A DNA stretch of 6,393 nt, from IMG/VR virus record IMGVR_UViG_2576861133_000006; one strand, given 5' to 3'. The DNA comes from a virus. Taxonomy: Duplodnaviria > Heunggongvirae > Uroviricota > Caudoviricetes. Of this stretch, positions 4,050 to 5,195 are shown in pieces (the first letter of the stretch is position 1; each line of letters begins with the position of its first letter). A model generated the notes under the pieces. It had not been told where the DNA came from. It ran no database searches and saw only the letters and a program-made list of their open reading frames with translations. A program made the translations under genes and the position numbers.

Positions 4050-4087
4050 ACAAAATCAATATAAACAGCCCCTCCGGAGAGGGGCTG
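4050..4087 (-). terminator. GC-rich hairpin followed by a U-rich tract on the minus strand (putative intrinsic terminator)
   Basis: 9-bp perfect stem CAGCCCCTC(4066-4074)/GAGGGGCTG(4079-4087) with loop CGGA. The minus-strand transcript continues UUUAUAUUGAUUUUGU; on the plus strand the hairpin is followed by GAGAGUGGCG, with no U-tract. It lies 35 nt past the stop of the 111-aa ORF. Confidence 0.4.
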
Positions 4088-4478
4088 GAGAGTGGCGCTA
4101 TGTGCCATTGCATGGTGCCGGGTGCCTCCCGGTGAATTCAGTACCAGCACCTGAATCCGCGATTATCCCATATACCTACTCGCTGATTGCCCCTCCGCAC
4201 AGGGGGATTCACCATGCCAGTTTCTTTTAACAAACTCCCCGCAAACCAGACAACAATCAACCGCCTGAATTGTGAAGTATTTAAAAATTTCTCCCGCTAA
4301 CTGATACCCGGCTAACAGTCTGGCGTTTTCTTTTTCAGCAACGGGAAAGCAACAACCACCACACCCGCCACCAGCACACCGTCAGCCAGCACTGACATTA
4401 TCCGGCTGCAGCAATGCCATTCACAAAAACAGTAAGCAATCACTTTTTACCGTAACCGGTGATAATCCAGATATGTAT

Positions 4479-4805
4479 CTACCCCAGATGAGTAATCCGA
4501 AGTTCATCCATACCACAGGTCCTGGCTATTCTGTTGTACTCCTGAACAAGAGTAAATAATTCTGAATTAGCCACCATGAACTCATCGCAAACCCTCTGTA
4601 TAGCATCACTATTCAGAATAATAACGTCTCTTCCCGAAAGACGATCAGGAGTACAGAACAAAACTGTCAAACGGCTGAAGGCCTTTGCTCGTGCTGCATT
4701 GACTATATCAATACGCTGCCTAAGGATGAAACACCCCGACGCCTCATCAATATTCACTCTACCCACACCATATGAATGATAAATATTTAATGCTGAAAAA
4801 ACCAT
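4479..4805 (-). CDS. Hypothetical protein, 108 aa from ATG at 4805 (118 aa if the GTG at 4835 is used)
   Basis: Minus-strand ORF in the cargo slot. Product MVFSALNIYHSYGVGRVNIDEASGCFILRQRIDIVNAARAKAFSRLTVLFCTPDRLSGRDVIILNSDAIQRVCDEFMVANSELFTLVQEYNRIARTCGMDELRITHLG. It contains 3 AGA, 3 AGG and 3 ATA codons. No convincing SD before either start and no recognised family. Confidence 0.4.
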   Translation of the reverse strand: MVFSALNIYHSYGVGRVNIDEASGCFILRQRIDIVNAARAKAFSRLTVLFCTPDRLSGRDVIILNSDAIQRVCDEFMVANSELFTLVQEYNRIARTCGMDELRITHLG

Positions 4806-4942
4806 TAGACCGTATAACAAACACTCAATCAACACTTAACAGAACTTTTATTTTTGACAAACATATAATATTTTCAACAATATCCTGAGCCAGGTATATT
4901 TCAGTATAAGGCTCTGCCGGAAGGAATCTGGAAGAATGAATA

Positions 4943-5019
4943 TGGCGCGCTGTACTGGATTCGAACCAGTGACCGATTGCTTAGAAGGCAATTGCTCTGT
5001 CCGGCTGAGCTAACAACGC
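4943..5019 (-). tRNA. tRNA-Arg, anticodon UCU, 77 nt (phage argO/argU-like)
   Basis: Minus-strand sequence GCGTTGTTAGCTCAGCCGGACAGAGCAATTGCCTTCTAAGCAATCGGTCACTGGTTCGAATCCAGTACAGCGCGCCA. Acceptor stem GCGTTGT/ACAGCGC (one G.U), D stem GCTC/GAGC, anticodon stem ATTGC/GCAAT with loop CTTCTAA, T arm ACTGG-TTCGAAT-CCAGT, encoded CCA. Confidence 0.9.
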
Positions 5020-5119
5020 TGAATACCGATAATGGACCGCCATCGGGGACCCGCCCCCGCACCAACAACCCTGTTATCGTGTCGTCTGCTCTTCCTGATA
5101 AGCTAATGGCGGTTTGTGA

Positions 5120-5195
5120 TGGTGGCCCTTGCTGGATTTGAACCAGCGACCTGGCGATTATGAGTCGCTCGCTCTCACCACTGAGCTAAAGGGCC
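5120..5195 (-). tRNA. tRNA with CAU anticodon, 76 nt; most likely tRNA-Ile2 (lysidine type, ileX/ileZ-like) rather than tRNA-Met
   Basis: Minus-strand sequence GGCCCTTTAGCTCAGTGGTGAGAGCGAGCGACTCATAATCGCCAGGTCGCTGGTTCAAATCCAGCAAGGGCCACCA. Perfect acceptor stem GGCCCTT/AAGGGCC, anticodon loop CTCATAA, T arm GCTGG-TTCAAAT-CCAGC, encoded CCA. Very close to E. coli ileX as I recall it. Confidence 0.9.

Follow-up and report, generated by a model that had tools for sequence, protein, structure and literature searches.

The minus-strand open reading frame (ORF) that lies 107 nt past tRNA-Arg(UCU), which itself follows tRNA-Ile2(CAU), is a genuine if unremarkable accessory gene of a prophage, and it probably encodes a helical-hairpin protein of 92 residues (ORF92). 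The original prediction placed the ORF correctly, directly downstream of the tRNA pair, and we shorten its gene model here to 92 aa, starting at GTG 4757. Overall, we consider it likely that the ORF is genuine accessory cargo of a lambdoid prophage, that is, a 92-aa hairpin gene in the slot between the antiterminator gene Q and the lysis genes whose codon content is driven by composition. DNA matching the ORF at >95% identity occurs at 1,348 places in 1,186 of 5,426 complete E. coli genomes. In general, PGAP fails to annotate this conserved prophage gene, which ~22% of complete E. coli genomes carry.

We examined the ORF within the whole 6,393-nt stretch of DNA presented here (the window), the features of which are collected in Table 1.

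Table 1. Features of the window around the ORF and the evidence for each.
Feature	Position	Strand	Evidence or remark
DNA methyltransferase	6294-5245	-	First in the minus-strand gene order
tRNA, CAU anticodon, Ile2-type	5120..5195	-	ARAGORN; Rfam, 72.5 bits; tRNA-Ile in PGAP
tRNA-Arg, anticodon UCU (AGA; AGG by wobble)	4943..5019	-	ARAGORN; Rfam tRNA, 68 bits; PGAP tRNA-Arg in the identical locus
ORF as first drawn, 118 codons from GTG 4835, in-frame TAA before it	4835..4479	-	
In-frame upstream extension, 26 codons (gives the 108- and 118-aa readings)	4758..4835	-	
Weak Shine-Dalgarno-like stretch, GGTGTGGGT, 4 nt 5' of GTG 4757	4762..4770	-	Sequence inference only
Likely coding sequence: GTG 4757, 92 codons and a stop	4479..4757	-	Family alignments; dN/dS
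DUF3927 small membrane protein (P1 TciB-like)	4312..4443	-	Pfam PF13064, E = 9.6e-27; phrog_1470 'TciB-like'
STnc100 sRNA, full-length	4057..4246	-	Rfam RF02076, 132 bits, E = 7e-30
STnc100 intrinsic terminator stem, 9 bp, GC-rich, strong	4087-4066	-	Terminator scan
IraM-like anti-adaptor ORF, 111 aa	3696-4031	+	NCBIfam NF007393, E = 4.7e-48; PGAP 'anti-adapter protein IraM'
NanS-p-type sialate esterase	3450-1579	-	
Holin	1506-1213	-	Listed as 97 aa
Duplicated DUF1327 protein	1208-612	-	

The gene for the DUF3927 protein starts 35 nt past the ORF stop, and ORF92, DUF3927 and STnc100 form a short block that is ended by the STnc100 terminator, save for Q-modified RNA polymerase. The same esterase/holin/STnc100 neighbourhood appears in a 2026 preprint on Pas sRNAs, in which STnc100 is related to the PasD sRNAs of prophages (10.64898/2026.05.13.724894). 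Several other features of the window were recorded along the way. The IraM-like ORF sits in an island of 31-35% GC between STnc100 and the esterase gene, and 6 of its 13 Ile codons are ATA. The true start of the holin is probably an internal Met, because the Pfam holin match begins at residue 31 and the PGAP homologue in locus L002 is 71 aa long. A perfect 251-nt direct repeat (687-937 and 939-1189; 252-nt spacing, 100% identity) doubles the DUF1327 gene in frame and yields a 198-aa two-domain protein, related prophages having a single domain of ~104 aa. The repeat may have arisen by recent duplication or may reflect an artefact of assembly.

Two starts had been proposed for the ORF, ATG 4805 and GTG 4835. 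Both codons are present, but the family alignment disfavours both and points instead to GTG 4757. Conservation sets in abruptly at this codon (residues VNIDE), and all ORF92 relatives begin at the position aligned with it (alignments A3 and A4 and the start-codon survey). In L019, for example, the gene starts with a GTG preceded by a strong AGGAG and lacks any in-frame ATG, GTG or TTG further upstream. The Citrobacter gene (L009) and the plasmid copy (L012) both start with ATG, with stop codons three and one codons upstream, respectively, and the Morganella and Serratia genes (L015 and L017) start with ATG after AAGGA. The stretch upstream of the aligned start carries a 5-nt indel between the window and L019. 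At the position of ATG 4805, L004 (a 60%-identical homologue) has AAT, and the position of GTG 4835 is GTA in 7 of 7 close alleles from E. coli and phage. Finally, in L005-L008 an IS3-family element replaces everything 5' of the GTG and the 92-codon core is kept whole. Because the family starts align, the upstream stretch contains an indel, the upstream start codons are lost in relatives and the IS3-family element replaces the upstream DNA, we place the product at 4757-4479. On these comparisons the product is most likely 92 aa long, beginning at GTG 4757 and retaining 8 of the 9 AGA/AGG/ATA codons of the ORF, and positions 4758..4835 most likely form a noncoding 5' untranslated leader. The hydrophobic extension encoded there, LIECLLYGLMVFSAL, was considered as an N-terminal signal or membrane anchor and rejected: it is not conserved, is out of frame in L019 and is probably untranslated. 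Upstream of the gene, a sigma-70-like site at 4877-4850 on the minus strand scores 9/12. We claim no promoter here, because promoter-like sites in the region (6) are no commoner than in shuffled sequences (4.6 +/- 2.3).

The homology search that the original prediction proposed as a check found the ORF to be conserved. HMMER, run exhaustively against 1.84 billion representative proteins, returned 21 representatives with E-values down to 1e-61, and a profile search of a 5.8-billion-protein set returned 40 clusters from six genera, all named "hypothetical." The hosts are Escherichia/Shigella, Citrobacter, Salmonella, Morganella, Serratia and Xenorhabdus. The family is thus small and confined to prophages of the Enterobacterales, with sequence conservation reaching down to ~20% identity. 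The ORF also matches PHROG 2873 over its full length (E = 1.2e-69, 232 bits; ORF residues 11-118 against profile positions 1-108 of 108) and, distantly, phrog_4827 (E = 3.6e-5), which is the Serratia/Morganella branch of the ORF92 family. Both are prophage families labelled 'hypothetical,' with no assigned function. The PHROG 2873 consensus was built on the 108-aa model that starts at ATG 4805, whereas the ORF92 family alignment favours 92 aa. Family members are 91-99 aa long, with a few gene calls of 106-110 aa (alignments A3 and A4). The window ORF has the family features, including the start (M/V)-N/S-I-D/N-x-E, R23, N64, N75 and the (T/P)PD loop, and the family HMM built from alignment A4 matches the window with E = 3.5e-34. 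Two outcomes named beforehand as fatal to the prediction, namely that the ORF would lack conservation in related prophages or would prove to be a 3' fragment of a longer gene, did not materialize: the family is conserved, and against its 91-99 aa the ORF is full-length and, as first drawn, over-long. A tblastn search of the ORF against 50,697 phage genomes gave no match except in mEp460_ev081, where the ORF is unannotated; mEp460 also carries the tRNAs, likewise unannotated (found with ARAGORN).

Structure prediction, the second check that had been suggested, gave a two-helix hairpin. The AlphaFold2 model of ORF92, made with a 20-sequence alignment, has a pLDDT of 87.9 and a pTM of 0.74, and comprises a helix at residues 3-33, a conserved 16-residue loop at 34-49 (TPDRLSGRDVIILNSD) with a small β-bridge, and a second helix at 50-81. 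ORF92 is thus predicted with high confidence to be a soluble antiparallel two-helix hairpin. The most conserved parts of the family are the loop, (T/P)PD(R/K)..G.V.I(L/F)N.D, and helix 2, AN.EL..LV.EYN.IA. Domain searches gave little to build on. Pfam returned for the window ORF a single hit below the cut-off (RHIM, E = 0.096) and, for 20 family members, no consistent match and none to prefoldin. NCBIfam and PADLOC scans gave no match, and the best hit of the family profile among PDB sequences had E = 0.12, which is noise. Prefoldin beta-type and ROP-like antiparallel hairpins are the nearest known shapes, but the fold match is not specific: Foldseek aligned the model with prefoldin beta at E = 0.2-0.9 and TM ~0.7, no better than with designed hairpins. 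ORF92 has neither a signal peptide nor a membrane segment, and it lacks metal and catalytic motifs. A protein of this kind would act by protein-protein binding, lacking as it does catalytic motifs, a signal peptide and a membrane segment; it may either self-associate into a helical bundle or use the conserved loop and helix 2 to bind a partner from host or phage.

A bolder reading holds that the hairpin founds a six-genus late-operon family with a specific activity of its own, missed by annotation in more than 1,000 E. coli genomes. ORF92 could then be, by way of example, a small coiled-coil inhibitor or adaptor that modulates lysis timing, envelope stress or superinfection by binding a protein of host or phage. 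We regard this reading as possible though doubtful.

We then considered the genomic setting, which argues for late-operon cargo of a lambdoid prophage. E. coli 4/1-1 has a 100% identical copy of window positions 4400-5195; on the strand of that copy, antiterminator Q is located ~1.5 kb further upstream and lysozyme lies downstream. Since Q lies upstream and lysozyme downstream on one strand, the ORF belongs to the late operon of a lambdoid prophage. This agrees with the orientation given in the original prediction, that of late transcription, the ORF sharing its strand with Q upstream and with holin and lysozyme downstream. Upon induction, transcription from the Q-dependent late promoter would run through the tRNA genes into ORF92. 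The gene is likewise on the late strand, flanked by Q and the lysis genes, in the window and in L002, L009, L015, L017, L019 and L030, covering E. coli, Citrobacter, Morganella, Serratia and Salmonella. Outside this slot, ORF92 occurs next to a fimbrial operon on a plasmid of E. coli (L012-14) and in a Mu-like tail region of Xenorhabdus (L031). The common feature of the family is thus position, in most contexts the cargo slot between Q and the lysis genes. We also noted an AraC-family (HTH_18) regulator of 241 aa, encoded 22-130 nt upstream of the gene in homologues of 55-62% identity (L004 164-889, L019 5142-5870 and L005 2933-3658) and absent from the window lineage.

The DUF3927 neighbour raises the alternative that ORF92 partners a downstream membrane-associated pair, TciA (TerB-like) and TciB (DUF3927), as a single module, which might serve, for example, envelope-stress protection or superinfection exclusion late in infection. 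Citrobacter (L009) and E. coli (L019) share the gene order ORF92 - TerB-like - DUF3927, and the window has ORF92 - DUF3927; the window protein matches the 'TciB-like' phrog_1470, and the P1 tciABC genes likewise lie among phage tRNA genes. On the other hand, family members in Morganella, Serratia and Salmonella and on the plasmid have neither partner. DUF3927 itself neighbours the gene in L009 and L019 and is absent in L012, L015, L017 and L030; it is a frequent but not an obligatory companion. P1, conversely, has tciABC and no ORF92 homologue: we searched for one hidden in its tci/tRNA region with the family HMM against a six-frame translation of P1 45-94.8 kb, and there was no match. The lack of any PADLOC match also counts against a dedicated module. 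Overall, we judge it unlikely that ORF92 works as part of a Tci module.

The original prediction also drew on codon usage: the ORF was described as rich in rare codons that match the adjacent tRNAs, which was taken to suggest co-acquisition. Its count of 9 AGA/AGG/ATA codons is exact (3 AGA, 3 AGG and 3 ATA), with AGR making up 6 of 11 Arg codons and ATA 3 of 11 Ile codons. E. coli core genes use AGA, AGG and AUA roughly ten times less often, and Ile2-type tRNA(CAU) decodes AUA after lysidine modification. Such numbers would favour an ORF acquired together with tRNA-Arg(UCU) and tRNA-Ile2 and matched to, or dependent on, them. However, with the amino-acid sequence fixed and synonymous codons drawn according to the base composition of the ORF itself (41.5% GC), 8.58 +/- 2.27 such codons are expected (z = 0.19), and so the description as rare-codon-rich does not hold beyond chance. 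The IraM-like, holin and DUF3927 ORFs are likewise at compositional expectation for these codons; the methylase and the esterase avoid them (z = -2.9 and -2.1). Neither enrichment nor avoidance is thus seen in the ORF, and we take the lack of avoidance as typical of AT-rich acquired genes.

Conservation and linkage tell against co-acquisition as well. Of the nine codons, AGA-102 alone is kept in L004, and AGA+AGG+ATA counts across the family range from 1 to 8 and are unrelated to tRNA presence. For instance, L015 and L019 have 7 and 5 such codons and no tRNA in the locus. Elsewhere the tRNAs are different ones: tRNA-Thr(UGU) nearby in L009 and L012, tRNA-Asn in L016, tRNA-Met(CAU), an odd tRNA and tRNA-Gly(UCC) in L017, and Ile2 plus Arg(UCG) 3.5 kb upstream in L005. 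The odd tRNA, in the Serratia prophage (L017/L018 5571-5645), is an ARAGORN call with an undetermined two-base 'tt' anticodon, located between tRNA-Met(CAT) and tRNA-Gly(TCC) just upstream of the family member. A co-occurrence check, also put forward with the original prediction, therefore gives a divided answer. In E. coli, the ORF is contiguous with the tRNA pair in 1,147 of 1,186 ORF-bearing genomes, a point in favour of co-acquisition, and in other lineages the association fails. Because the E. coli block is >95% identical, we read its linkage as inheritance of one block and not as repeated association. The tRNA pair itself is far commoner than the ORF, occurring at 7,599 places in 3,061 E. 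coli genomes, mostly without it.

Even among E. coli, the tRNA directly upstream of the near-identical ORF varies: an ETEC strain has a single 71-nt 'tRNA-Met' there (L028 3044-3114), and the tRNA-Arg is 74 nt or 77 nt long in other genomes (L023/L024). The 58 nt of tRNA-Arg in the alignment contain 17 variable sites. These sites and the varying upstream tRNAs point to a recombination breakpoint between the tRNA and the ORF. Since codon counts are unrelated to tRNA presence and one of nine codons is kept in L004, codon-tRNA co-adaptation is unsupported, as are the proposed match of codons to tRNAs and the co-acquisition drawn from it. We consider co-acquisition improbable. Base composition alone accounts for the count, which removes an attractive story. 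A search for rare-codon papers on ileZ/argN/argO found none in the literature collection that was covered. In the cargo reading that we prefer, the AGA/AGG/ATA codons would be a by-product of the 41-44% GC composition, the two tRNAs would aid ORF92 translation incidentally, and ORF and tRNAs would adjoin through sharing one cargo slot and not through co-adaptation.

Finally, the ORF might not, or no longer, be functional; it would then be a remnant undergoing decay, or an untranslated DUF3927/STnc100 leader that merely stays open. PGAP made no call of the intact ORF in any sampled RefSeq genome (L002, L022-L029), the GTG start has a Shine-Dalgarno sequence degraded relative to the AGGAG of L019, and insertion sequences lie in or at the gene in some genomes. 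Such insertions recur: IS1 (L003 2288-2985) lies within the coding region in strain SCU-176, and the IS3-family element (L005-L008) directly borders the GTG start in 24 contigs or more. In addition, eight close E. coli alleles differ in the ORF core by 6 nonsynonymous and 2 synonymous changes, a roughly neutral ratio whose power, with only 8 variable sites, is very low. Because this 6:2 ratio is near neutral, present-day constraint in the window lineage is not demonstrated, and this allele may be poorly expressed or may have come under relaxed selection of late. Against decay, dN/dS in the ORF frame is 0.28, 0.21 and 0.31 for the three pairs of window, L004 and L019 (~69% nucleotide identity), and in shifted frames the same pairs give 0.8-1.4 with 4-11 stops. 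Between lineages, the sequences thus point to strong purifying selection on the family. The frame is also intact in 8 of 8 close alleles and in clusters of 146-370 member sequences, and the ORF core is the least variable part of a 700-nt block (2.9 variable sites per 100 nt vs 4.5-5.7 in the flanks). Moreover, PGAP calls the copy split by IS1 a 'hypothetical protein, incomplete' pseudogene, using the ATG-4805 model, and reference proteins therefore exist. We thus attach little probability to a non-functional ORF.

Among known systems, one close parallel to the neighbourhood is the tci cluster of phage P1. P1 tciB is of the DUF3927 type, like the window neighbour, and the P1 cluster too is embedded among tRNA genes (Asn, Thr and Ile2); unlike it, the window lacks the TerB-like tciA. 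In P1 (L021 24349-26009), tciA (TerB-like), tciB and tciC are arranged in this order, with tRNA-Ile2(CAT) at one flank and both tRNA-Asn and tRNA-Thr at the opposite flank, and this association of tRNAs with Tci genes is that of lambdoid late regions. A literature search on TciABC returned only the P1 annotation 'by homology.'

The cargo ('moron') genes that lambdoid and Stx phages carry between Q and lysis offer the broader comparison, and ORF92 shares with them slot, strand, low GC, patchy distribution and mosaic neighbours. Known cargo at this position includes stx (in related phages), the nanS-p esterase, methylases, AraC-like regulators, TciA/TciB-like genes, the ileZ/argN/argO tRNAs and sRNAs such as STnc100. 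Unlike stx or NanS-p, ORF92 carries neither a secretion signal nor an enzymatic domain. Should ORF92 turn out to have a defined partner, the Q-to-lysis cargo slot would gain a further small effector.
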